From contig JBHLRP010000002.1 of NCBI GenBank assembly GCA_048882485.1, forward strand, positions 38,527 through 102,526: a stretch of 64,000 nt of DNA, written 5' to 3'. This DNA is from Candidatus Thorarchaeota archaeon. Lineage in GTDB: Archaea; Asgardarchaeota; Thorarchaeia; Thorarchaeales; Thorarchaeaceae. A program made the position numbers and the translations under genes. Shown here piece by piece: positions 35,124 to 49,045 of the stretch. The notes under the pieces were generated by a model. It was not told where the DNA came from and ran no database searches. It saw only the letters and a list, made by a program, of their open reading frames with translations. Positions within the stretch are counted from its first letter, which is position 1, and every line of letters begins with the position of its first letter.

Positions 35124-37793
35124 ATGAGTCGGACGGAAAAGAAAGTCGAAACTCCAAGCACAGTGGAGGCCATTAGAATGGCATCTGCTTCAGTTCTCGG
35201 CACTACCACGAATCTAGGCTATCCTCTAGGAAGTGCCGTGGGTTCAGGGAGCATGATGGAGGAGAACTCGGATGTGGTAGCGATGAACATCGCCCCTCTT
35301 GTTTTCGCGATACGCGATGCTCTTCTGGACGCCGAGGGTCTCGAACTTCTATCACTTGAATGGGACTTGGAACGAAAACCAGGTCCTGGAGTTCTTCCTG
35401 AACAACTTGTTGTTGCCGGAGGTACTTCCGAAGGTATTGGATCTCATGTTGTCATTCTAAGTTGGGAAAAGGGCGCAGTAGATCCATTCAAGATTGACAA
35501 ACACATGCAGACGCTCTCCAAGAAGATGTCCGATATAGAGAGTGCAATTATCAGCAATGGAATGAGCTACGAAACTCATGGCCTGCCCGTGCTCAGAAGG
35601 TTCAATGACCGCCTCAATCGTGTCATTTTCGTCGAGATGCTGGACAGACGTTTTCAAGCATCTTGGGACTCTCTTCAGCTCAAATCTGAGCATGTGGACA
35701 AAGAGATTGAAGTGACCATGAACTTCCGAGAAGACTTCACGCTTCTTCCGCCTGGGGTAAAAGTTATGGACCGTACACTTCTCGAATTCTTCCTGCCCCG
35801 GGAGAGTGAAGACAAGGTTCTCAGGCATTTCAAGCATAGAATACTCACACCCCGCGGTCTCGAAGCAATCGCTATCAAGGTTCCAGAAGCCGGACGGGCA
35901 ATTCTTAGTGAGCTAAACATGTACGCCTATAGTATAGAAGAAGTCGATATTGCAAATGCTACGACTATGAAGTTCACCGAATTTCTTGGCAGAAGTGAGG
36001 TGGCACTCCGTAATCTGCACTCATTCAAGAGAGAATTGGACGAGTTTGTATCATTGGTCACTGATTCTGTTGAGTCTTTTGAGAAGATAACGGAGCAGCA
36101 TGTTACTTCAGGCAAGACTCTCTCTTTGCTTGATCACAAGACGGAGATATTAAATCAAATTGACATGCATGCTGACTTATTCGTTGGATTCAGAAAGAAC
36201 ATCGCACAGGCACTCACAGAAGAGCTGGTGAAATCTGCACAGCGCGGATTCCATGATATTCCAGAAGTACGAGCATGGCGGCTTGGCAGCACTGCATCAT
36301 ACTTTAACCTCTATGCGAAACGCACGACTCGCTATTTCTCAGATGCAATGAATCAGTTTCTAGTCGTTAATGCTGCCCGACAGGCTTTCGTGACTGCCTT
36401 GAACAGATTCCAAGATGAGATGAAAACGTTCACTGATGAAGCCATAGAAGAGGCGCTCTTCGACAAGTTCTACGTCGAATTGCATTCTCAAATGAATGCC
36501 ATTTTCGATAAGGTGTCTTACGAAGGCTCTGTTTACCGGCACCTGGATGAAATTCTGGCCATCATAAACAAGGATATGCTGGAGGCCTTCGACCGCATTG
36601 AAATATGGGATCTTGTCGGATTTAGTGATGTAGCTGAAATAACGAAATCGGAGATTACCTCCAAGTATGCCAGCGAGTCAGAGACCCAAGAAGTTTCTCA
36701 GGATGGACGGGCTATCCTGGCAATATTGGAAACCTTCGAGGACCTCGTTCTGAATATCATTCCCAATGTTGCGGATACCCTGCTATCAAAGACCCTGATA
36801 AGAAAGGTCATTGACAAAGTTCTTGGTGAAGGCGCAGATCTAACTAAGGAAATTGGCGAGTTCATAGAAAACATGACCCAAAAGCCCGATGAATGGAGAG
36901 ATGAGGCTCGGCTATGGGTCAGAGGGTATCTGGAAACGGTCGAGCCTCAGATGAAAACGCCTGAGAAATTCTTGGCACTTCTTAGATATGTGCATAACAA
37001 AGTTGGCTTGGGTTCAACTGCGCAAGCCATTGTAGACAAGGTCACTTTCGAAGCCAATCAGCAGGAAAAAGCATACCAGCTGATTGTAGAAGATTGGGAA
37101 CAGACTTGCGAACGCATTGAGTCAGAAAATCAACCCATTCGTGAGAATAACAGAAAACGTGCGGAGGCTCTTGCTCTAGCTGAGTCTCAGTATAATGAGG
37201 AGAAAGTACAATATGACATCGATATGGAGAAGTATCGCAGAGCTTTGGAGGCTGCAAAGGCATTGGCTGAAGAAGTGCCTTCTCTAGCACCTGGTGAAAT
37301 TTCTCCCGCAGTTATTGAGCCTCCTCCGTTGCCTACCGAGCCGAAGCGTCCACAATCGCTTGACATGAGAATCGTTGAAGTGAATAATCAGTTTCCTGAG
37401 ATGGAGGAGATTCCTGTTCCGGAGAAACCTGTTCCCCCTCCAGAGATGCACCACTACATTGGCCTTCGAAACCTGCTTACCAAGCAGTTAGACAGCATGG
37501 ATGTAGCTCAAGAGAAAATGAAGCAAGTCTTCGCAGAGAGTCTGAAGCAAATGCTCTCGGAGGCTTCATCAGTGTCAGCTGAATTGACGATTGAGATTGG
37601 GGAAGACTTTCTGGAATATCTGCGTAACATGGAGATTCGGAGTCTAGGCAAATTGCTTCCACGTGCGACCAGGGCATATCTAAGAGATCCCAAGAATCCG
37701 GAAATTATCTATCTTGTGACATACGAACAAAGGGGCAATGAACTCACTGTAACCGTAGGTGATACTCACCTTCGCAACATAGGAGGTGTCTGA
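35124..37793 (+). CDS. Large hypothetical protein (possible N-terminal Roadblock/longin-like domain, helical body, coiled coil, Pro-rich segment)
   Basis: 889-aa open frame with host-like codon use; no family recognised. Confidence 0.85.
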   Translation: MSRTEKKVETPSTVEAIRMASASVLGTTTNLGYPLGSAVGSGSMMEENSDVVAMNIAPLVFAIRDALLDAEGLELLSLEWDLERKPGPGVLPEQLVVAGGTSEGIGSHVVILSWEKGAVDPFKIDKHMQTLSKKMSDIESAIISNGMSYETHGLPVLRRFNDRLNRVIFVEMLDRRFQASWDSLQLKSEHVDKEIEVTMNFREDFTLLPPGVKVMDRTLLEFFLPRESEDKVLRHFKHRILTPRGLEAIAIKVPEAGRAILSELNMYAYSIEEVDIANATTMKFTEFLGRSEVALRNLHSFKRELDEFVSLVTDSVESFEKITEQHVTSGKTLSLLDHKTEILNQIDMHADLFVGFRKNIAQALTEELVKSAQRGFHDIPEVRAWRLGSTASYFNLYAKRTTRYFSDAMNQFLVVNAARQAFVTALNRFQDEMKTFTDEAIEEALFDKFYVELHSQMNAIFDKVSYEGSVYRHLDEILAIINKDMLEAFDRIEIWDLVGFSDVAEITKSEITSKYASESETQEVSQDGRAILAILETFEDLVLNIIPNVADTLLSKTLIRKVIDKVLGEGADLTKEIGEFIENMTQKPDEWRDEARLWVRGYLETVEPQMKTPEKFLALLRYVHNKVGLGSTAQAIVDKVTFEANQQEKAYQLIVEDWEQTCERIESENQPIRENNRKRAEALALAESQYNEEKVQYDIDMEKYRRALEAAKALAEEVPSLAPGEISPAVIEPPPLPTEPKRPQSLDMRIVEVNNQFPEMEEIPVPEKPVPPPEMHHYIGLRNLLTKQLDSMDVAQEKMKQVFAESLKQMLSEASSVSAELTIEIGEDFLEYLRNMEIRSLGKLLPRATRAYLRDPKNPEIIYLVTYEQRGNELTVTVGDTHLRNIGGV

Positions 37794-40245
37794 TTTGTCA
37801 AGTTCTTGGGTCATTAAGACTCGCCAGATGAGTGAGGCAGGGAAGGAACTTATCCTTCGTGAGGCTCTAGCTACTCATCTAAGAAGCACAAGAGCTCGGC
37901 AGATATTCCATGAAATGATTCCTGACCCCCGGCTTCTGGATGAAGTCTTGGCAGCCTTTGCATCGTTCTATTTGCAGAGCTATCAAGGAGTCCGTCTGCA
38001 TACTATTGAAGATGCTCAGAATCTGAGCATTGAAGAACAGGAGAAGATTGGTGCAGAAACAAGAGTTCAGCTGGAAAATGAAGTTCGCAAACTCCTTGGA
38101 TCGAAACAACGAGAAGAAGTAGCAGTCGGGAAATTACTCAGTGAATTCGTTATACGCTTCTGTGATGAACTTGGTAGCAGAGATCCTGCTGATGATGAAA
38201 CAGTCACAAGGACCGGAGATCTCCTCAGGGAGTATTTAGGAAAGATTCCAAATGAGTTCTCACAGAATCATGATGTTGACTTCCTCAATCAGTTGACGAG
38301 ATATGATTCAAATCTGAGGGAAGAACTATATGCCAAAGCATCTGGTCTCAAAGAAACCGCAATGTCTCTACGAGAGGAGGTCCTTCGAGAACACGAAGCA
38401 GAAGTAATAGAGATTACAGTTCTGAAAGAAGGCCTAAAGCGGATATGGGGCGAGCCAAGTTATGCCAGCGCACATATCGCTGAGTCCATGAATTATCCAG
38501 CAACAATGGGCGAAATCGCAAAGGATGTGGCAAATAGATACTGCAAACCAGCTGATGAACTGGCCACCATCAAGCGTGCTCATGAGATACGTCTAAACTT
38601 TCTGACGGCAGTTGAGACGCAATTCACAAGTTCAACCACACTTGACGACTACGAGAAGCAACTTGTCGATAAGGTGTCTGAGGATGTCGCATCAGCAATT
38701 GAAGCCAATCCGGCAAAGGCTTTCGATCTACTCTCCCATCTCTTACAAATACCGTCCACGGACATCGCTGCAGCATTAAGACGCAAGGGTCTGTCAGACC
38801 CATCTGACTTGGTCAAGGGCTTCAGAATTATGGAGGAAGCAAAGATTGAGAAAACTGAAACAGAGGGTCCTGCCATCAGCGAGGTAGAGATGGATTACTT
38901 GGAACGATCGCTCAAAGCAATAGACAAGCTTGAGAATATCTTGGAGCGACCTGTAAAAGGAGCGTTAAAGGCTCAGGGTCTCAGGGCATCAGAGCTTGAT
39001 AAGTTCACAATTGAAACTCTAGCAAAGGACCGGGACTCGCTCATTGGTTTTGAGGTCACAGTTTTGGAAGCTCTTAAGCAGAAAACCAGAGTCCCTTCTC
39101 CAGAAGATGTCAAGCGACTTCTTGAGGCGCGTGAGAAGGTGAAGCAGGGTGCACTCAGCTCTATTGGGGTGTCCTCCTCCTCAGATATAGTTCGACATCG
39201 TCGCCATGGCGAAACCATTGCGGCTCTGAGGTTCGACCTGGTATGGCATCTCACATCAGGTATCCTTACAAATCTCTCGCGTGTGGTTGAAACATATATC
39301 CGCTCCAAACAGGATCTCCTGCGCATCAAGGCTCTTCTCAAGAGTATCTATGAGAGTCCCGAGACTGACCTTCAGGCGCTTCGAGAGGAAATCCTCATCG
39401 ATTTGGCTTCTCAGAGAATCTATGAACTGAAGACGGTCTATCCTGGCTTAAAAGCCCCAGAGATCACTTCATGGATGCACGCTCGGCTTTCCAACAAGGA
39501 TATGACTGCTGCGAAAGCAGCACTTGATAGCACGCCAAGTCCTGTCTTTGAAGGTGTAATCGACACCGAGCTCGTGACAGATCAGTTGGACTTTGATAAC
39601 TATGCAATTGCGTATGATATCATGCATCGGTTCCTTAGAACTGAACGCAGGAAGAAGCTTGCCAAGGAGGAATTGGCACTCGAAGCCAAGCTTGAGGAAC
39701 AGAAAGTTGCAGAGAGCATGAAAGCCTCACTTGATGTCTTGACTTGGATTTATACTAAGAGTCAGACGGTGTTTAGAGCTATTGGGAGAGTAGGTGTCAA
39801 GGGTCTTGAATGGAACACAAACGATGATTCAAAATGTGCCAATCTCCTTGCATTCTATATCCGAACTAGTAGAGGTCGGAAGTTATGTTCAGTCTGCGGC
39901 GAAACGCCACCGGATAACAAGTGTCCAACACATAAAGCAACCAACATGATTCCGAGCAATGATATTGAGAACTTGGCAATATTTGTAATGAGGTCGATAA
40001 CTGACATAAAGCAAGGTCTCATTGGTTCAGCAGCCAAACCAGTGACCCTTACAGAAGCAAGGTCGATAGTGGACAGGGAGATTAGAGCTCTGCGCAGGAA
40101 CGGTAGGATAACAGGAAAGACAAATCTGAAGCAGCTGATGCCAGGTGATATCAATTACGTTATTGGCCCTGCAATAGCTAAAGTCATTGGAAAATACTTC
40201 AATGAATCGTTGCAGTATGCGGCTAGGCGGGTGAATTTGGCCTAG
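37786..40245 (+). CDS. Large alpha-helical hypothetical protein with C-terminal CxxC...CxxH Zn finger
   Basis: 819 aa; overlaps the upstream stop, ggaggtg SD; CSVCG...KCPTH. Confidence 0.85.
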   Translation: MSDLSSSWVIKTRQMSEAGKELILREALATHLRSTRARQIFHEMIPDPRLLDEVLAAFASFYLQSYQGVRLHTIEDAQNLSIEEQEKIGAETRVQLENEVRKLLGSKQREEVAVGKLLSEFVIRFCDELGSRDPADDETVTRTGDLLREYLGKIPNEFSQNHDVDFLNQLTRYDSNLREELYAKASGLKETAMSLREEVLREHEAEVIEITVLKEGLKRIWGEPSYASAHIAESMNYPATMGEIAKDVANRYCKPADELATIKRAHEIRLNFLTAVETQFTSSTTLDDYEKQLVDKVSEDVASAIEANPAKAFDLLSHLLQIPSTDIAAALRRKGLSDPSDLVKGFRIMEEAKIEKTETEGPAISEVEMDYLERSLKAIDKLENILERPVKGALKAQGLRASELDKFTIETLAKDRDSLIGFEVTVLEALKQKTRVPSPEDVKRLLEAREKVKQGALSSIGVSSSSDIVRHRRHGETIAALRFDLVWHLTSGILTNLSRVVETYIRSKQDLLRIKALLKSIYESPETDLQALREEILIDLASQRIYELKTVYPGLKAPEITSWMHARLSNKDMTAAKAALDSTPSPVFEGVIDTELVTDQLDFDNYAIAYDIMHRFLRTERRKKLAKEELALEAKLEEQKVAESMKASLDVLTWIYTKSQTVFRAIGRVGVKGLEWNTNDDSKCANLLAFYIRTSRGRKLCSVCGETPPDNKCPTHKATNMIPSNDIENLAIFVMRSITDIKQGLIGSAAKPVTLTEARSIVDREIRALRRNGRITGKTNLKQLMPGDINYVIGPAIAKVIGKYFNESLQYAARRVNLA

Positions 40246-41212: not shown

Positions 41213-42607
41213 TTGGGCAAAAGATTCGTTCCAAAAGGAGTAATGCCTGCATTGGTCACGCCGTTTACAAAGGATGGAGACATTCTCGAAGAAGGATTCA
41301 GACAGGTGATTGATTTCACCATAGGAAAAGGAGTGACTGGAGTCGTACCAGCTGGGACAACTGGCGAGTTCTCATATCTAAGGACAGAGGAGCGTAAGAA
41401 GCTTCTCAAGCTTGCTGTAGAGTATGTAGATGGAAGAGTCCCTGTCATTGCTGGCACCGGTCAGAATAGCACCAGAGCCACTGTAGCACTTAGCCAATAT
41501 GCGGCTGATATTGGCTGTGATGCCGCACTGATTATTTCTCCATACTATCTACGACCTGCTGACAAGGGATATTATGACCACTATGCCGAAGTTGCCAGAA
41601 AAGTAGAATTGCCCGTAGTAATGTACAATATTCCTCAATGCACACTAGGTATCCTCAACTCAAATGTTGTTGAGGATTTGGCTGAACTTGATAATATTGT
41701 TGGAATCAAAGATAGCGGTGGAAACATCGGACATACGGTTGAATTGATCCAGAAATTGAAGGGGAAGATGCCTGTATTGATTGGTCATGATGAATGCTTC
41801 CTCTCTGCTATAGCAGCTGGTGCAAGTGCTGCCATTATGGCTTCTGCGAACATAATCCCACACATCTGGCTGGAAATCATGGAGTCTGTGAAATCTGGCG
41901 ATTATGCGAATGCTGCTCAACTGCAACAGAATGCACAGACTCTGGCAAGGATAGTCACAAGGAATGGTGGTGGACCACCAGTAAAAGCAGCGCTGAAGAT
42001 GATGGGTATCAAAGCTGGTAGGAGCAGAATGCCCCTTGATACGGGCGGGACATTGACACTCGAACTCAAAGAGGAAATCCGCTTGGAACTAGAAAAGTTG
42101 GGAGTGATTGAGTCATTGACTCATCCCGCTCCTGGGCTCACCGCGATTAAGGATATTCTTCAAGAAATGGATTTGGAAATAAATGAGGCAGATACCAACT
42201 ATGGTGCGGGCTCCAACGATAAGGTCACAGTGAGCATTCTAGCTGGTTCAAAGAGAGGCTCTGTTGGTAGAGCATTTGTGACATTACTAACCACCCCGCA
42301 CGTGGGCCGAGAAGCTCTCACAGTTATTCTTGAGCCGAACTTGCCAGTGAAACCATCAAGCTTGATGTTTCCCATCAGCAAGATTGAATCTATGAGACAG
42401 GCTTCTCTCTTCTATGGACCAGTTCAGGCTGGTGCTGCACGCGCGGTTGCAGAACATCTTGAGAAGAACCTAATCCCCAAAGAGGTCCTATCGAATAATG
42501 TAATTTTGATGGCTTTGGACATAGACTTGAACACGCGTGATCGCAGAGAGATTAGAGCTGCTACTGAAAATGCAGTAAGTGCCGCTCTAAGTCAGATGTG
42601 GAGTTGA
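41213..42607 (+). CDS. DapA-family class I aldolase fused to a degenerate Fae domain (copy 1)
   Basis: ALVTPF, GTTGEF, PYY, YNIP, GIKDS; C-terminal PNL.VKP, FYGPVQAGAARAV, IP; TTG 41213 preferred. Confidence 0.88.
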   Translation: MGKRFVPKGVMPALVTPFTKDGDILEEGFRQVIDFTIGKGVTGVVPAGTTGEFSYLRTEERKKLLKLAVEYVDGRVPVIAGTGQNSTRATVALSQYAADIGCDAALIISPYYLRPADKGYYDHYAEVARKVELPVVMYNIPQCTLGILNSNVVEDLAELDNIVGIKDSGGNIGHTVELIQKLKGKMPVLIGHDECFLSAIAAGASAAIMASANIIPHIWLEIMESVKSGDYANAAQLQQNAQTLARIVTRNGGGPPVKAALKMMGIKAGRSRMPLDTGGTLTLELKEEIRLELEKLGVIESLTHPAPGLTAIKDILQEMDLEINEADTNYGAGSNDKVTVSILAGSKRGSVGRAFVTLLTTPHVGREALTVILEPNLPVKPSSLMFPISKIESMRQASLFYGPVQAGAARAVAEHLEKNLIPKEVLSNNVILMALDIDLNTRDRREIRAATENAVSAALSQMWS

Positions 42608-44091
42608 TGAAAATGGCGAGTCATACCTATCGATTCAAAGGTGTCTATCCTGCTCTGGTTACTCCGTTTGATGAACATGGTGTCAATGAGAAACAGTATC
42701 GACGCCTGATTGATTATACAATTGGAAAGGGTGCTACTGGATTGGTTCCATGCGGTACAACTGGCGAGTTCACCAGCATGCGATTCGAGGAGAAGGTGAA
42801 TGCTATTCGAATAGCCTGCGAAGCTGCTGCTGGACGAGTGCCAGTAGTGGCAGGTACTGGAGCCGCATATACAAATGATGTGATTAAGTTGACAAGAAGG
42901 GCTGCAGAATTTGGAGCCTCCGCAGCTCTTGTCGTAACTCCATACTTCCTCAAACCATCTACAAAGGAGGTCTATGAGCACTTCGAGAAGATAGCGAATT
43001 CATCAGAAATACCAATCATCGTGTATAACATTCCTCAGGTAACCGGGGTCATGCTTGATTGGTGGGTGATTGACGGATTGCGAGAGATTGAGAACATAAT
43101 TGGCTTGAAAGATTCAAGTGGCAATCTCGTGCATTTGACCACAGTTCTTGTTCGCAAACCGGATGAGTTTCAGGTTATGGTTGGGCACGATGAGGTAGCT
43201 CTTCCTGCACTTGCTTCGGGATGTGATGGTGCAATTCTGGCCAGCGCAAACATCTTTCCGGATCGCTACCTAAAGATGCAAGCTGCTCTCGCCACAGGTG
43301 ACCTCAAGGAGGCTCTGATAATTCAAAGAAGCATTCAGAAGACAGTCCGGATTTTTGTCAATCGAGGTGGAGGTCTAGCCATCAAGGCGGGACTAAACAT
43401 GATGGGCATTCCTGTGGGATCGGCTCGTCGCCCTCTACAGGAAAGTGATTCTTTGAGATACGAAGACATTGATGAACTCAGGACTTGTTTGGAAGACCTT
43501 CAATTGATTGAGCGCGGACTTGTGACCTTTAAAATGGGTGAAAGAGAGCTTCTGGCTGAAAGCTATCCAAAGGCGGTGGGACTAGTACCGAATGTTGTAG
43601 AAGATTTGACATTACTACATGGCGAGGCATTGGCAGGAGAAGGGCAAGAGGTGGCACACGTCGACCTAGTTATGGGAGTTAGAGACGGACCGCTTGGTGC
43701 TGCGTTGAAGAATGCTGGAAAGATTGTCGAAGGCGTTCATTCATCAAACATCATCAAGGACCTAGAACCGCTTACTGTGTTTGCACCAACTGTGACTATA
43801 ACGAGTGAGAAGCAGAAGAAGATGGTCATGGAAGTCGCGCAGAGAGCTGTAGCCGATGCTGTTAGACGCACAGTTACAGATGGAGTAATCCCTGAGGAAC
43901 TCATTCCAGACCTTGTTATCGCAGTTAATACATTTGTGCATCCAAATGCTGTTAATCCAAAGAGAGTACACATAAACAACTTCCGAGCTGTTCGCTTTGC
44001 GATTCGAAGAGCAGTTGAGGGGCGACAAACTGTGGAGGAGATTATTCAGCGAAAGGAGTCTGCACGCCATCCATTTGCATATAATCCATGA
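42607..44091 (+). CDS. DapA-family class I aldolase fused to a Fae domain (copy 2)
   Basis: GTTGEF, PYF, YNIP, GLKDS; GEALAGEG.EVAHVDL..G..DGP, AQRAVADAV, FVHP.A, N..A...AI.RA, ARHPF; TGATG overlap with copy 1. Confidence 0.92.
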   Translation: MKMASHTYRFKGVYPALVTPFDEHGVNEKQYRRLIDYTIGKGATGLVPCGTTGEFTSMRFEEKVNAIRIACEAAAGRVPVVAGTGAAYTNDVIKLTRRAAEFGASAALVVTPYFLKPSTKEVYEHFEKIANSSEIPIIVYNIPQVTGVMLDWWVIDGLREIENIIGLKDSSGNLVHLTTVLVRKPDEFQVMVGHDEVALPALASGCDGAILASANIFPDRYLKMQAALATGDLKEALIIQRSIQKTVRIFVNRGGGLAIKAGLNMMGIPVGSARRPLQESDSLRYEDIDELRTCLEDLQLIERGLVTFKMGERELLAESYPKAVGLVPNVVEDLTLLHGEALAGEGQEVAHVDLVMGVRDGPLGAALKNAGKIVEGVHSSNIIKDLEPLTVFAPTVTITSEKQKKMVMEVAQRAVADAVRRTVTDGVIPEELIPDLVIAVNTFVHPNAVNPKRVHINNFRAVRFAIRRAVEGRQTVEEIIQRKESARHPFAYNP

Positions 44092-45217: not shown

Positions 45218-48200
45218 ATGATGAAAAAGGAAAGCAGCGAGAATCTACCAGGAAGAGAGCGCGTTGAAAAGATAGGCTCTAACTGGACAGAAATGATTAA
45301 GCTTCACAAACAGGCGGCAGAGTCCTATTTAGACCAGAAAAAGGTGAGGGAAGCCGCAGGAGCACACAAAAAGCTTGGATATGCTTATGCGCAGTTTGCA
45401 GAAACAGTTGATACTTCAGGTGAATATATAGACCAGACCAGAAGTGCTATTGATGCCTTCAGAAAAGCTGCGACTCTCTATAAACAGATAGGCAACAGGC
45501 AGGAGGAGTTGGAATGCATTGGAGAAGTCTTCTTCTTCAGCGGGTCTGTAGCAGGGTCCAATATGGAGCTTAAGAAGGCGTTTAGTAAATCTCGTGAGCA
45601 CTTTATTGAATCAAACGAACTCTTTACCAAGGAGAATGATCAAAAGGGTCGAGCGCGGACTTTGAGTCGTGCTGCATTGGTTTCATTCTACCTAATTCTT
45701 CAATCTAACGACAAACAAGAGGCTCAACGGATTTCTCAGGAAGGCATAGCCATTGCAGGAGAATCTTGGGAGCTTTCAAAGGATGTTGGAAATGTTCAAT
45801 CTCTTGCTGAATCATTGTATGCTGCATTTTCTCTATGTGTGGCTCATATGTTTGTTGCACCTTATAGAGGGGATGAGAATTGGAAGGAATACAACAAGAA
45901 ACTCCTATGGAAGTGTGATGAGAGTATAAAGGCTATCGAGGATTGTGACAATCCTCTTTTCATTAGTATGGTTCACCTTGCGGCCGGTACCCTATACACC
46001 TTCTTTGGATTTAATTTCATTAAGCATGATAGAGAACAGAGAGAATACACTGAGAAGGGTTTTCAGTTATTGGAGAAGGCTCTAATCTTCGCAAAGAGAG
46101 CAAATAATAAAATCTTGATATTAACTTCGCTATGGTGGTTGAACTGGAATGCTCTTAATACAGCAAGATACGAGCACATCCAGAAACGAATTTTCGAAGA
46201 CATCTGGCTTATGGAAGAGGCCGGAAGAATATTTGCAGAATCATACTCTTTTTGGTTTCATGCTGGAAAAGTCATGCCAGGTTACTGTTATGCAAACTTG
46301 CTTCGGATGAGTTATTACACTACTGCTCAGAGGAAGGCTTTTGCTGAGAAAGGAATCGAATATACAATGGAGTCCATGAAGAAGGGAACCCCCGGACCAA
46401 CAGATGTTTGGCTATATTCGTCATTAACATGGTCACATTCACTACTAGCTACTTTCGCTGATACGAAAGATAAGCGGAATCAACACGCCCAGAAAATGCT
46501 TCAATACGCTCGAAGGGCTGAAGAAATCTGTGAGGAATTTGATGGAGATTGGACTCGAGCTGCTGGGTATTCTTCCACTTACGGAGCCTACAAGACTCTC
46601 GCAGACATTGCAGAAAGTGAGAAAGAAAGAATCAAGCATCTATCAGCTGCAATAGATGCCGCTAGAAAGTATAATCAACATCCAGTGGAAAGCCGTACCG
46701 GCATCGTAGCATCCCAAATTCGGCTAGGGCTTCTCTACCAAGAGCTTGGTATTTTGGCGACAAAGATCGAACCGCTTAGAAAGGCAAAAGAAACTTTTCT
46801 AAGTGTAATCAAGGAGAGTCGTGATAGGGGATATCATTTCTATGAGGCTGCGGGTCACGAATATGCTGCACATATAGAAGATCGACTTGGCAATCATATT
46901 GCTTCCGCTGAACACTACGAAAAGGCTCAGGAGGCTCACACAGAGTCGTTGAGAACCATTGACTTCAAACCTATGAAAGAGAGGGTAGAGGAGAAAGCAA
47001 ACTATGCTTGTGCATGGAACATGATTGAGAAGGCTAAAGCCTTTCACAGGATGTCAAATTACCAAAAAGCTAAGGAAAACTATGAGAATGCATGTGAAAT
47101 TCTGAAAGAACTACCGAGCTTTGATTATGAAGCATATTACTACTCTGCTTGGGCTATGCAGGAAGACGCAGAACAACTCAGTAGGCAGGAAGAACATGAG
47201 GATGCTTTGGAAAGATATGAAGCAACCAGAAAGAGCTTCGATAGCGCGATAAAATCACTGGAAGAAACCTCCACTTCTTTGAAAAAGAGATATGAGAAAG
47301 AAAGAATCGAGAAACTCAAAAAAGTAGCCAAGGTGAGAATGAACTACTGTTCCGGTAGAGCAGATATCGAAAGAGCAAGAATCCTAGGAAAGCAGGGTGA
47401 ACACCTAGCAGCTGCAGAGAGATTTGCTTCAGCGGCTTCTGAGTTCAAGGATGTTCTAACTCGATTCAGGATTAAAACGGAACGAATGGAGTTGGAGGCT
47501 GTATACAACCTCTGCAGAGCTTGGGAAAGTATGGAGCTTGCAGAGAACTACGATGACGCAGACAGGTTCGCAGAAGCAGCAAGCCTATTCACCGAAGCCA
47601 GCAAGCTCTTCACCGATACCAAGCTGAAGTTGTTAGCCAAAGGTAACTCAGCTTTTTGTAAGGCTTTAAAAAACGGGTGTGAATTTGACGAGTCAACAGA
47701 AACAGATGTCAAAGCATCACTCTATCCAAAAATCAAGACGACGCTTAGAAAGGCAGCGTCTGCCTATCGGAAAGGTGGTTACGATGGCGGAGCCGATTGG
47801 GCTCTTGCAACATCTTCCTATTTCGACGCGACATGGCACCTAATCAAAACGGACGAAGAGTTGGATATTGACAAAAGGAAGAAACTCCTCAAAATCGCGA
47901 CTAAGTATCTGAAATCAGCAGCTGAGCTTTTCAGTAAATCAGGTCACAAACACAAGGAGAGGGAGATACTAGGACGCTTAGACATGGTCGAAAAGGAAGA
48001 GCGTATTCTAGTTTCAGCCTTAGGCACGATAACAGAGCCATCTATCTCTAGAAGCACATTAGGCATTGTCGCCCCTTCATGTCCTACAGAAACCAGCTCC
48101 TCTCCAAGAATAGGGGAAGTTCGTCAGTTCACTGAAAGAGCATCACAGGTCAGAATAGAAACGAGTCAGAGAAAATACGAACTCATTTACGAGAACCTAC

Positions 48201-49045
48201 TTGAAGAAAGCGCAAGTATTCAAAGAAAGGAATGCAGGGTTGGCATCGCCCAGATAGGAGTTTCCAAGACAAGCGATATCCTAAATGAATTCTATGAGAT
48301 GAAGACTGATGGCTTTCTAGGTCTTAGGCAGGATAAAGTCGAAGCTGTAAAATCCAGAGTCATAAGCATGATAGAATTCGCCTACAGAGAAGGTGTGAAC
48401 ATCCTACTATTCCCTGAAATGACCGTCGACCTCAATTACAACGAATTACTAGAAGACATAATCCGCCTAGCTAAGGAATACCGTATGTACATTATCCCAG
48501 GATCATATCATGACGATGATACAAAACAGAACCTCAGTACGGTTGTAGGACCAGAGGGAATCCTTTGGAAACAGGAGAAGCACATTCCAGCTACTATTCA
48601 CTATAAAGGTGAAAGGTTCACTGAGGAAATAGGATCCGGAACGCTCCCGAGGAGAACGTTCGTTTGTGACACAGAGTTTGGAAGGATTGCAATTGTTATA
48701 TGTCGAGACTTTCTGGACATGGACCTAAGGGTGGAGCTAAAGAACTTTGAACCTCCAGTGGATCTAGTGTTCAATCCAGCATTCACCCCGGTTACAGCAG
48801 ACTTCAAGGCAGCCCACTTTGATGCTCGAAGATCCATCTACGCCTATTGTTTCTTTGCAAATATTGCTGAGTTCGGAGATTCGCTCATTTACACTCCTGA
48901 AAAGGAACGTGTCGAAAGAAGTATACCACCGAGGGAGGAAGGTCTAATCTACAAGGATGTGCAGCTTTTCCAACTTCGTTCAGAACGCAAAAAGTGGGAA
49001 AAGAAGCAGGAGAAACAAAGGTCGTTTATACAAAGTACAAGATGA
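45218..49045 (+). CDS. TPR/alpha-solenoid protein with C-terminal nitrilase-family (carbon-nitrogen hydrolase) domain
   Basis: About 930 aa of TPR/SNAP-like helices; VGIAQ, LFPE, PGS, QEKHIP, GRIAIVICRDF, NPAF, FAN.AEFGDS.I..P. Confidence 0.88.
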   Translation: MMKKESSENLPGRERVEKIGSNWTEMIKLHKQAAESYLDQKKVREAAGAHKKLGYAYAQFAETVDTSGEYIDQTRSAIDAFRKAATLYKQIGNRQEELECIGEVFFFSGSVAGSNMELKKAFSKSREHFIESNELFTKENDQKGRARTLSRAALVSFYLILQSNDKQEAQRISQEGIAIAGESWELSKDVGNVQSLAESLYAAFSLCVAHMFVAPYRGDENWKEYNKKLLWKCDESIKAIEDCDNPLFISMVHLAAGTLYTFFGFNFIKHDREQREYTEKGFQLLEKALIFAKRANNKILILTSLWWLNWNALNTARYEHIQKRIFEDIWLMEEAGRIFAESYSFWFHAGKVMPGYCYANLLRMSYYTTAQRKAFAEKGIEYTMESMKKGTPGPTDVWLYSSLTWSHSLLATFADTKDKRNQHAQKMLQYARRAEEICEEFDGDWTRAAGYSSTYGAYKTLADIAESEKERIKHLSAAIDAARKYNQHPVESRTGIVASQIRLGLLYQELGILATKIEPLRKAKETFLSVIKESRDRGYHFYEAAGHEYAAHIEDRLGNHIASAEHYEKAQEAHTESLRTIDFKPMKERVEEKANYACAWNMIEKAKAFHRMSNYQKAKENYENACEILKELPSFDYEAYYYSAWAMQEDAEQLSRQEEHEDALERYEATRKSFDSAIKSLEETSTSLKKRYEKERIEKLKKVAKVRMNYCSGRADIERARILGKQGEHLAAAERFASAASEFKDVLTRFRIKTERMELEAVYNLCRAWESMELAENYDDADRFAEAASLFTEASKLFTDTKLKLLAKGNSAFCKALKNGCEFDESTETDVKASLYPKIKTTLRKAASAYRKGGYDGGADWALATSSYFDATWHLIKTDEELDIDKRKKLLKIATKYLKSAAELFSKSGHKHKEREILGRLDMVEKEERILVSALGTITEPSISRSTLGIVAPSCPTETSSSPRIGEVRQFTERASQVRIETSQRKYELIYENLLEESASIQRKECRVGIAQIGVSKTSDILNEFYEMKTDGFLGLRQDKVEAVKSRVISMIEFAYREGVNILLFPEMTVDLNYNELLEDIIRLAKEYRMYIIPGSYHDDDTKQNLSTVVGPEGILWKQEKHIPATIHYKGERFTEEIGSGTLPRRTFVCDTEFGRIAIVICRDFLDMDLRVELKNFEPPVDLVFNPAFTPVTADFKAAHFDARRSIYAYCFFANIAEFGDSLIYTPEKERVERSIPPREEGLIYKDVQLFQLRSERKKWEKKQEKQRSFIQSTR

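Follow-up and report, generated by a model that had tools for sequence, protein, structure and literature searches.

Tandem aldolase–Fae fusion genes of a Thorarchaeia genome divide one formaldehyde-activating site and probably act as a pterin-linked hydroxymethyltransferase

The window analysed here, a stretch of 64,000 nucleotides of Candidatus Thorarchaeota archaeon (assembly GCA_048882485.1, contig JBHLRP010000002.1, positions 38,527 to 102,526), carries two co-directional genes, A followed by B, each encoding a class I aldolase of the DapA family joined to a domain of formaldehyde-activating enzyme (Fae). The host is a Thorarchaeia metagenome-assembled genome (MAG; G000) with 90.5% completeness and 5.8% contamination, and the closest loci to the window were those of Thorarchaeota/Promethearchaeota MAGs. 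Profile searches revealed the same domain order in both proteins, the dihydrodipicolinate synthase (DHDPS) family PF00701 (E-values of 5e-76 in A and 3.5e-74 in B) being followed by the Fae family PF08714 (2.7e-27 and 3.8e-34, respectively). The two proteins share 34% identity, and their Fae domains are the only ones in G000. A and B are real, conserved genes which databases misannotate as DapA. A first-pass annotation, made from the sequence alone, had described them as paralogues each with a full aldolase barrel and a Fae domain; the barrels were confirmed (PF00701, E<1e-73), while the Fae domains proved to be half-sites. The features are as follows:

41213..42607, + strand: gene A, DapA-family class I aldolase joined to the loop-face half of Fae; probably starts at TTG 41213
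41234..42040, + strand: aldolase barrel of A (PF00701, residues 19-287 of the 475-aa frame)
41354..41368, + strand: GTTGE pyruvate-carboxylate motif of A
41624..41644, + strand: YNIPQCT of A, with catalytic Tyr149 and without an Arg138 equivalent
41708..41710, + strand: Schiff-base Lys177 of A
42218..42592, + strand: Fae half-domain of A, keeping E378, L380, E385-P386-N387, P392, R406, Y412-G413-P414 and Q416
42613..44091, + strand: gene B, DapA-family class I aldolase joined to the His-face half of Fae; probably starts at ATG 42613
42634..43458, + strand: aldolase barrel of B (PF00701, residues 10-284 counted from 42607)
42754-42768, + strand: GTTGE of B
43024..43044, + strand: YNIPQVT of B, with catalytic Tyr140 and without an Arg138 equivalent
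43108..43110, + strand: Schiff-base Lys168 of B
43621..43665, + strand: N-terminal Fae motif GEAL...EVAHVD of B, with His351 and Asp353 (His22 and Asp24 of M. extorquens Fae)
44068..44076, + strand: C-terminal Fae arm HPF of B, absent from A

The open reading frame (ORF) of A spans 475 aa from the in-frame upstream ATG 41180 and 464 aa from TTG 41213, and the latter is the likely start because 464 aa fits the homologues of 465-467 aa. The ORF of B spans 494 aa from ATG 42607 and 492 aa from ATG 42613. The stop of A (TGA 42605-42607) overlaps ATG 42607, so the TGATG that had been taken as translational coupling is present in the sequence; in nearly all other Thorarchaeia pairs, however, B starts 2-7 nt past the stop of A, which favours ATG 42613 as the start; the overlap is not conserved and is probably fortuitous. 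In some genomes, an open frame of about 1000 aa was reported for gene A; a reading of these frames as A-B fusions was rejected, because A and B are separated by a stop and the frame stays open for 509-554 codons.

Analysis of the aldolase domains showed that both have the TIM barrel, GxxGE motif, Tyr and Schiff-base Lys of the class I superfamily, the catalytic residues being T60/T61, Y149 and K177 in A and T51/T52, Y140 and K168 in B. In accordance with the first-pass annotation, the pyruvate Schiff-base machinery (GTTGE, the YNIP Tyr and the Lys of G[IL]KDS) is kept in both, and the Arg of DHDPS is gone, YNIPQCT (A) and YNIPQVT (B) standing where M. jannaschii DHDPS (2yxg) has YNVPSRT. This Arg138, which binds aspartate semialdehyde in DHDPS (PMC3188589), is replaced by Cys or Val in A, B and the single-gene fusions described below, and is missing in all fusions aligned. 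GTTGE is kept in 93-100% of the single fusions and of the Thorarchaeia and Chloroflexota copies, and a GHDE/GWDE motif and an invariant Arg253 mark the fusions specifically. Both proteins passed the TIGR00674 dapA profile (228.7 for A and 230.5 for B, cut-off 206.15) and both barrels had DHDPS as best PDB matches, while the NanA, KdgD, HpaI-like and KDG (2-keto-3-deoxygluconate) aldolase models scored below cut-off for both. In one Thorarchaeia B copy (L030:7046-8524), ASLGE stands where GTTGE is expected, and the aldolase site of B may be dispensable in some lineages.

The Fae domains were compared in an alignment of 35 A/B pairs, from Asgard archaea, Bathyarchaeia, a Korarchaeota-labelled record, Chloroflexota and one soda-lake assembly, and 80 single-gene fusions (numbering of the L054 single fusion). 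Invariant in B were E342, A352, H353, D355, T402, F450, H452, R460, N464, N465, H495 and P496, and invariant in A were E381, L383, E388, P389, P395, R409, Y415, G416, P417 and Q419; both sets are retained in the 80 single fusions. With the residue roles that we take from the 1Y60 structure, the two faces of the Fae site are divided in 35 of 35 pairs, B holding His22, Asp24 and the arm, and A the 45-66 loop and GPxQ. The window copies follow this division: A lost the equivalents of the His22/Asp24 motif and the HPF arm, B lacks the 45-66 loop and has a shortened middle when compared to M. extorquens Fae (1y5y), and the TIGR03126 Fae scores were 87 bits for A and 127 for B, below and above the cut-off of 118, respectively. 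The equivalents of His22, Asp24 and Gln88 are thereby kept across two subunits, and the position of Lys71 is Thr in 97% of the single fusions and in all B copies. Both faces occur in one chain only in the single-gene fusions; in the pairs only a heteromer supplies both.

Modelled as a complex, two Fae domains of A with two of B obtained a score of 0.84 (best control 0.39), a mark attained by 51 of 78 pairs with solved structures and by 2 of 108 mismatched ones. The runs share at least 73% of contacts, with a partner pLDDT (predicted local distance difference test) of at least 73, and the confident contacts join A 358-395/409-428 with B 333-355 (including His351 and Asp353), 439-441 and 474-490, so that the modelled interface consists of the two conserved faces. 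Since the structure of the Fae pentamer is known, the pass may reflect likeness to the solved oligomer; the match of the predicted interface to the conserved faces, nevertheless, rests on independent sequence data. A and B are very likely an obligate heteromer. Fae sites lie between the subunits of a homopentamer, a ring that the pair could not keep because only one face works in each subunit. After the split, every AB pair retains a single site; this agrees with a tetramer of the DapA type, and the stoichiometry is probably A2B2.

In the tree of the aldolase domain, A (87/86), B (99/95) and the singles (85/82) each fell on one side of a branch, consistent with one ancient duplication whose products were later shared among Thorarchaeia, Baldrarchaeia, some Bathyarchaeia, the Korarchaeota-labelled record and Chloroflexota. 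Among 251 Asgard genomes, the pair occurs in almost all Thorarchaeia (56 of 59 had a match, most of them two) and single fusions in several other families; single intact fusions are found in other Asgard archaea and in Bathyarchaeia, and pairs also in Chloroflexota. Nearly all single-fusion genomes carry a separate canonical Fae in a frame of about 400 aa, while Thorarchaeia have only the pair. A literature search found no publication on a fusion of Fae with DapA/DHDPS.

The C1 carrier may differ between the two forms. C1 enzymes dependent on tetrahydromethanopterin (H4MPT) were found in 26 of 26 fusion-bearing Asgard genomes tested, and single-fusion genomes had Mch in 19 of 19 cases and Fhs in 1 of 19, pointing to H4MPT as their carrier. 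Among the pair-bearing genomes, G007, G053 and G253 possess H4MPT enzymes but no Fhs, and in Thorarchaeia the two occur together (Fhs in 8 of 8), G000 itself holding Mch, Ftr, Mtd and Fhs. In the 13 Chloroflexota genomes with the pair (completeness not given), Mch was found in 3 and Fhs in 12, which makes tetrahydrofolate (H4F) a possible carrier there. The split enzyme may thus use H4F in bacteria and either carrier in G000; no residue separated folate-host from H4MPT-only pairs cleanly by eye. Frequent occurrence without H4MPT, which the first-pass annotation had named as evidence against its proposal, was in part seen in Chloroflexota. We know of no description of a folate-using Fae.

Genomic context analyses revealed that, outside Thorarchaeia, the gene upstream of the fusion is unannotated and belongs to one of two types, U1 with about 315 aa and U2 with about 427 aa. 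The two have in common the invariant residues E, R, E, K, S, N, R, R and K and a TIM-barrel fold (U2 against a U1-like cluster, Atlas TM 0.70) and are together called U. The 427-aa gene upstream of the Lokiarchaeia fusions was considered as a decayed A; this was rejected, since the gene proved to be U2, which is distantly related to U1. U matched no Pfam or NCBIfam family, its best match to the U32 family PF01136 being below cut-off (E 0.2, 11 bits). Its fold is U32/CutC-like (5d88, Z 13.9, rmsd 3.5 over 185 aligned residues, from a model of pLDDT 58); no Cys that could form an Fe-S cluster is invariant in 50 U sequences, and ComA, an early candidate for the family, was not among the fold matches listed. 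The family is large, with more than 6000 clusters at E<1e-20. In 80 Asgard genomes, where kin are not independent and some records may be the same genome, all 39 fusion-bearing genomes had U and all 34 genomes without U lacked the fusion. One Lokiarchaeia-type family has 9 genomes with both and 9 with neither, which argues against plain inheritance as the cause of this co-occurrence, and from genomic association U is probably an obligate partner of the fusion. In G000, U is unlinked to the pair, and it did not figure in the first-pass annotation:

G000:C9:52506-53771 (L056:8483-9778): U2 of G000 (65% identity)

Distant homologues suggest what U may act on. Of 80 loci of such homologues, mostly actinobacterial, 50 contain a galactonate-dehydratase-like gene and none a DapA-like gene; the actinobacterial and Thermomicrobium loci (L223-L302; e.g. 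L255, L251 and L218) often also hold a Zn dehydrogenase, an arabinose-type sugar ABC transporter and, in some, a lactonase, and the homologues in these sugar-catabolic clusters are candidate enzymes for a 2-keto-3-deoxy-pentonate dehydratase or aldolase step that is missing there. On a Mycobacterium plasmid (L222:8851-11407), a partial U homologue directly precedes dmpF/dmpG, in the usual place of the hydratase. By association with 2-keto-3-deoxy-acid pathways and dmpF/dmpG, U most likely acts on 4-hydroxy-2-oxoacids.

Which oxoacid is indicated by the genes that replace the fusion. Over 160 U loci, 85 have a full fusion, 5 have PanB (two of them with Fhs) and 17 have Hom, mostly together with an aminotransferase and an aldehyde:ferredoxin oxidoreductase (AOR); the fusion occurred together with Hom or PanB in none of the 160. 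Hom was present in 9 of 10 archaea with U and without fusion, against 7 of 30 with fusion. In two U-linked PanB cases, the genome holds a second PanB beside a PanE-like gene, and the U-linked PanB is hence an extra copy. The U-linked PanBs (L078:8997-9878, L087, L132 and L136) read GQL[ML]IVHD where the pan-operon copies read GQ[IV]LV, at positions that we take to line the 2-oxoisovalerate pocket and that would fit a smaller donor such as pyruvate. PanB cleaves 4-hydroxy-2-oxobutyrate (HOB) to pyruvate and methylene-H4F, and transaminases interconvert HOB and homoserine (PMC6966089; bioRxiv 2025.02.17.638773); the compound has been called non-natural in the synthetic-biology literature (PMC6966089, PMC8879981). 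HOB is the likely metabolite, because it alone can be handled by all three modules, and the interconversion of HOB with pyruvate and a methylene-pterin, a hydroxymethyl transfer, is the reaction that we predict for A and B with reasonable though far from full confidence.

The chemistry first proposed for the pair, an interconversion of pyruvate plus formaldehyde with HOB, thus gains independent support from the PanB and aminotransferase/Hom/AOR modules, unlike its homoserine-type assimilatory role. Hom was found in 0 of 9 Thorarchaeia, Hom, ThrB and MetX were not found in Thorarchaeia including G000, and ThrB was present in 3 of 53 further genomes, all bacterial, so that a homoserine-type assimilation route is unlikely; HOB would not lead to threonine, nor to methionine via homoserine, and would flow only to and from U. 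The first-pass annotation was also right that ilvE and thrC-like genes lie in the window unlinked to the pair.

On balance, the best explanation of the whole is that A and B form one heteromeric pterin-linked hydroxymethyltransferase which works in two steps and serves U. The class I barrel would bind HOB as a Lys Schiff base and cleave it reversibly to pyruvate and formaldehyde, and formaldehyde would be channelled to a single composite Fae site, formed by the His351/Asp353/HPF face of B and the 378-416 face of A, which would condense it with a tetrahydropterin to the methylene form, the carrier being H4MPT in single-gene fusions and H4MPT or H4F in split pairs. The C1 unit would then enter the Wood-Ljungdahl branch. 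Aldolase-Fae, an extra PanB with Fhs/FolD, and an aminotransferase with Hom and AOR would be three interchangeable modules serving U, which would form HOB from a 4-substituted 2-oxobutyrate; the simplest such substrate is the methionine keto acid 4-methylthio-2-oxobutyrate (KMTB), from which methanethiol would be eliminated before water is added. We lean moderately towards the degradative direction, HOB cleavage. That the methionine keto acid is the simple, abundant source of HOB is a tentative proposal, somewhat short of an even chance. The pair probably sits inside an undescribed pathway. Its fullest version is more speculative still: a widespread pathway, shared by archaea and bacteria of anaerobic sediments, by which the new family U links a KMTB-type keto acid with HOB, methanethiol being released or fixed, and three unrelated modules remove or supply HOB. 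One of these modules, a Schiff-base aldolase that carries its own site for loading the pterin, would have split into a heteromer and become an H4F-using Fae in Chloroflexota and perhaps in Thorarchaeia.

The same enzyme could run biosynthetically, methylene-pterin and pyruvate giving HOB that U consumes, either by adding methanethiol or sulfide to form the methionine or homocysteine keto acid or by dehydration toward 2-oxobutyrate; the other modules would then be alternative supplies of HOB (PanB in the forward direction; aspartate to aspartate semialdehyde by AOR, followed by Hom and a transaminase). This is a change of direction within the preferred explanation rather than an independent alternative. 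Every step is reversible in principle and thiol addition is, on an approximate estimate, probably downhill; MetE-type and MetX genes were mostly not found in the genomes searched, an OYE (old yellow enzyme) gene occurs in 7 of 80 U2 loci, and archaeal Asd was not found in 24 of 25 Hom/AOR genome records. The last observation also fits homoserine oxidation to aspartate, and AOR normally oxidises aldehydes in peptide fermenters. Against biosynthesis, the homocysteine-biosynthesis gene of PF01837 is present in all 18 Lokiarchaeia-type genomes and G000 with or without U, Ask and Asd are present in G000, G075 and G147, and without ThrB, MetX and Hom the Thorarchaeia have no obvious homoserine outlet. 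We therefore consider it unlikely, and U as a simple replacement of methionine synthesis was rejected because MetE and PF01837 profiles do not track U. Less probable again is another 4-hydroxy-2-oxoacid (4-hydroxy-2-oxoglutarate, 4-hydroxy-2-oxovalerate or a 2-keto-3-deoxy sugar acid), the Fae-like site binding a larger aldehyde or serving as scaffold or sensor. The Thr at Lys71, the occurrence of U homologues with dmpFG and pentose catabolism, the retention of Fae faces after loss of the aldolase Lys in the soda-lake pair described below, and an Arg138 loss shared with 4-hydroxy-2-oxoglutarate aldolase (HOGA; PMC3188589) speak for it; the PanB and Hom modules, however, point to C1 plus pyruvate and a C4 compound, the His22, Asp24 and Gln88 equivalents are kept, and GTTGE stands where HOGA has Ser77/Asn78 (PMC3188589).

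Two further readings retain little probability. As a substitute for ketopantoate hydroxymethyltransferase, the pair would convert 2-oxoisovalerate and methylene-pterin to ketopantoate for coenzyme A synthesis, in keeping with PanB as the replacement at 5 U loci and with the 13 pair-bearing Chloroflexota genomes, in which no PanB was found. This very improbable reading was rejected, since PanB is present in G000 and in 7 of 8 other Thorarchaeia and the U-linked PanBs are extras beside the pan-operon copy; it also leaves U and the Hom/AOR module unexplained. Still harder to credit is the reading implied by the database names, in which the pair is a normal lysine-pathway DHDPS and the Fae part a mere passenger. 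Ask and Asd of G000, the TIGR00674 pass and the PDB matches agree with it, but Arg138 is missing in all fusions and DapB (PF05173), found in G147, was not found in G000, G075 (98% complete) or G023 (97%). Moreover, of 6 further Thorarchaeia with the pair, 5 yielded no Asd, and in G000 its presence is explained by its place beside homocysteine and shikimate genes. Despite the profile pass, the DHDPS reading was rejected. On contigs C77 and C35 of G000, Asd with the PF01837 gene occurs twice, possibly from a mixture of strains.

Several observations weigh against the hydroxymethyltransferase explanation. Fold searches with two U models returned generic TIM barrels only, and no solved relative stands out; the co-occurrence of U and fusion was counted over related genomes. 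In 23 of 80 U1 loci, of Anaerolineae (L083, L104, L114 and L131), U1 precedes two fumarase/TtdAB-like subunits, for which the model offers no explanation. G000 has a gene of the methionine gamma-lyase (MGL) family and could degrade methionine by the ordinary route. RFAP (beta-ribofuranosylaminobenzene 5'-phosphate) synthase was not found in G000 at 1e-30, a result that does not tell the carriers apart, as the search likewise failed to find it in genomes with Mch. Finally, GTTGE and the Schiff-base Lys are gone in both copies of the soda-lake pair (L050:8544-11449) while both Fae faces are kept, which points to a function there that is limited to Fae or to binding.

Comparison with known systems places the pair apart from each of them. 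Like the archaeal Fae-Hps (NF009833), it would join a formaldehyde-releasing or -fixing aldol enzyme to Fae, and both proteins match the Fae part of that model; their scores (75 and 98, cut-off 274) come from the Fae part only, with no hexulose-phosphate synthase (Hps) domain, and they have an N-terminal Schiff-base DapA barrel for a 2-oxoacid where Fae-Hps has Hps at the C-terminus. With M. extorquens Fae (PDB 1Y5Y/1Y60; PF08714, TIGR03126) they share the fold, His22, Asp24, Gln88 and the HPF arm, and differ in that the site residues are split over two genes, Lys71 is Thr and many hosts show no H4MPT enzymes. The TIM barrel, GxxGE, Tyr relay, Schiff-base Lys and 2-oxoacid/pyruvate chemistry are those of the class I family of DHDPS and N-acetylneuraminate lyase (NAL), which includes E. 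coli DapA, human HOGA1, YagE/YjhH and KDG aldolase; the fusions, unlike that family, lack Arg138 (DHDPS) and Ser77/Asn78 (HOGA) and are fused to Fae. Judged by residues, profiles and the search for DapB, the pair falls outside DHDPS, Fae-Hps and HOGA, and neither A nor B by itself makes up a complete Fae. The net reaction proposed, HOB plus pterin to pyruvate plus methylene-pterin, is that of PanB on HOB in the synthetic HOB pathway (Bouzon 2017) and the homoserine cycle (He 2020). Those are engineered side activities, whereas the fusion would have evolved for this reaction in nature, with other folds and a pterin site of its own. DmpG/DmpF likewise couple, physically, a 4-hydroxy-2-oxoacid aldolase to an enzyme whose cofactor captures the aldehyde; they are metal-dependent and use a C2 aldehyde with CoA and NAD, as opposed to a Schiff base, a C1 aldehyde and a pterin.

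The DapA name in databases falsely suggests lysine synthesis in metabolic models. If the proposed reaction is true, HOB occurs naturally, and these peptide fermenters connect amino-acid carbon to the Wood-Ljungdahl C1 pool in a way not yet accounted for, which may also make or consume methanethiol in sediments. An HOB aldolase of this dedicated kind, equipped with a pterin site, would be the missing efficient part of engineered homoserine-cycle methylotrophy. The pair is, in addition, a clean case of reciprocal loss, from homo-oligomer to what is very likely an obligate heteromer, with the unsplit ancestor-type still extant for comparison.

Other observations concern the neighbourhoods of these genes. 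In the Anaerolineae, U1 follows MetV/MetF-like, Fe-S and CooC-like genes, and the aldolase-Fae pair lies elsewhere in the genome. An OYE-family flavin reductase gene (L173:10807-11937) follows U2 and the fusion, as in some Lokiarchaeia operons. An Enterobacter plasmid (L221:7922-18930) carries a U homologue (30%) with a phosphotransferase (weak methylthioribose-kinase match), a 2-hydroxyacid dehydrogenase, an aminotransferase, iron redox enzymes and a major facilitator superfamily (MFS) transporter, and looks like a small-molecule biosynthetic cluster. In G000, a ThrC-like gene (L056:6167-7660) lies on the opposite strand two genes upstream of U2, and a RuBisCO-like protein (L304:5253-6584; nearest to MtnW enolase, below cut-off) is encoded divergently from fhs/folD. 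A third DapA-family gene, on contig C27, is unrelated to the pair (27%) and nearest to KdgD, below cut-off.

Within the window, a scan for promoters and terminators gave no greater signal than in shuffled sequence. Two large coupled ORFs (889 and 819 aa; 35124-40245) with no Pfam match lie upstream of the pair, and the 819-aa gene is also upstream of A at another Thorarchaeia locus (L028). At 45218-49045, a protein of 1275 aa has long helical repeats and a terminal domain in which nitrilase-like motifs (FPE..., GRIAIVICRD) can be recognised by eye.

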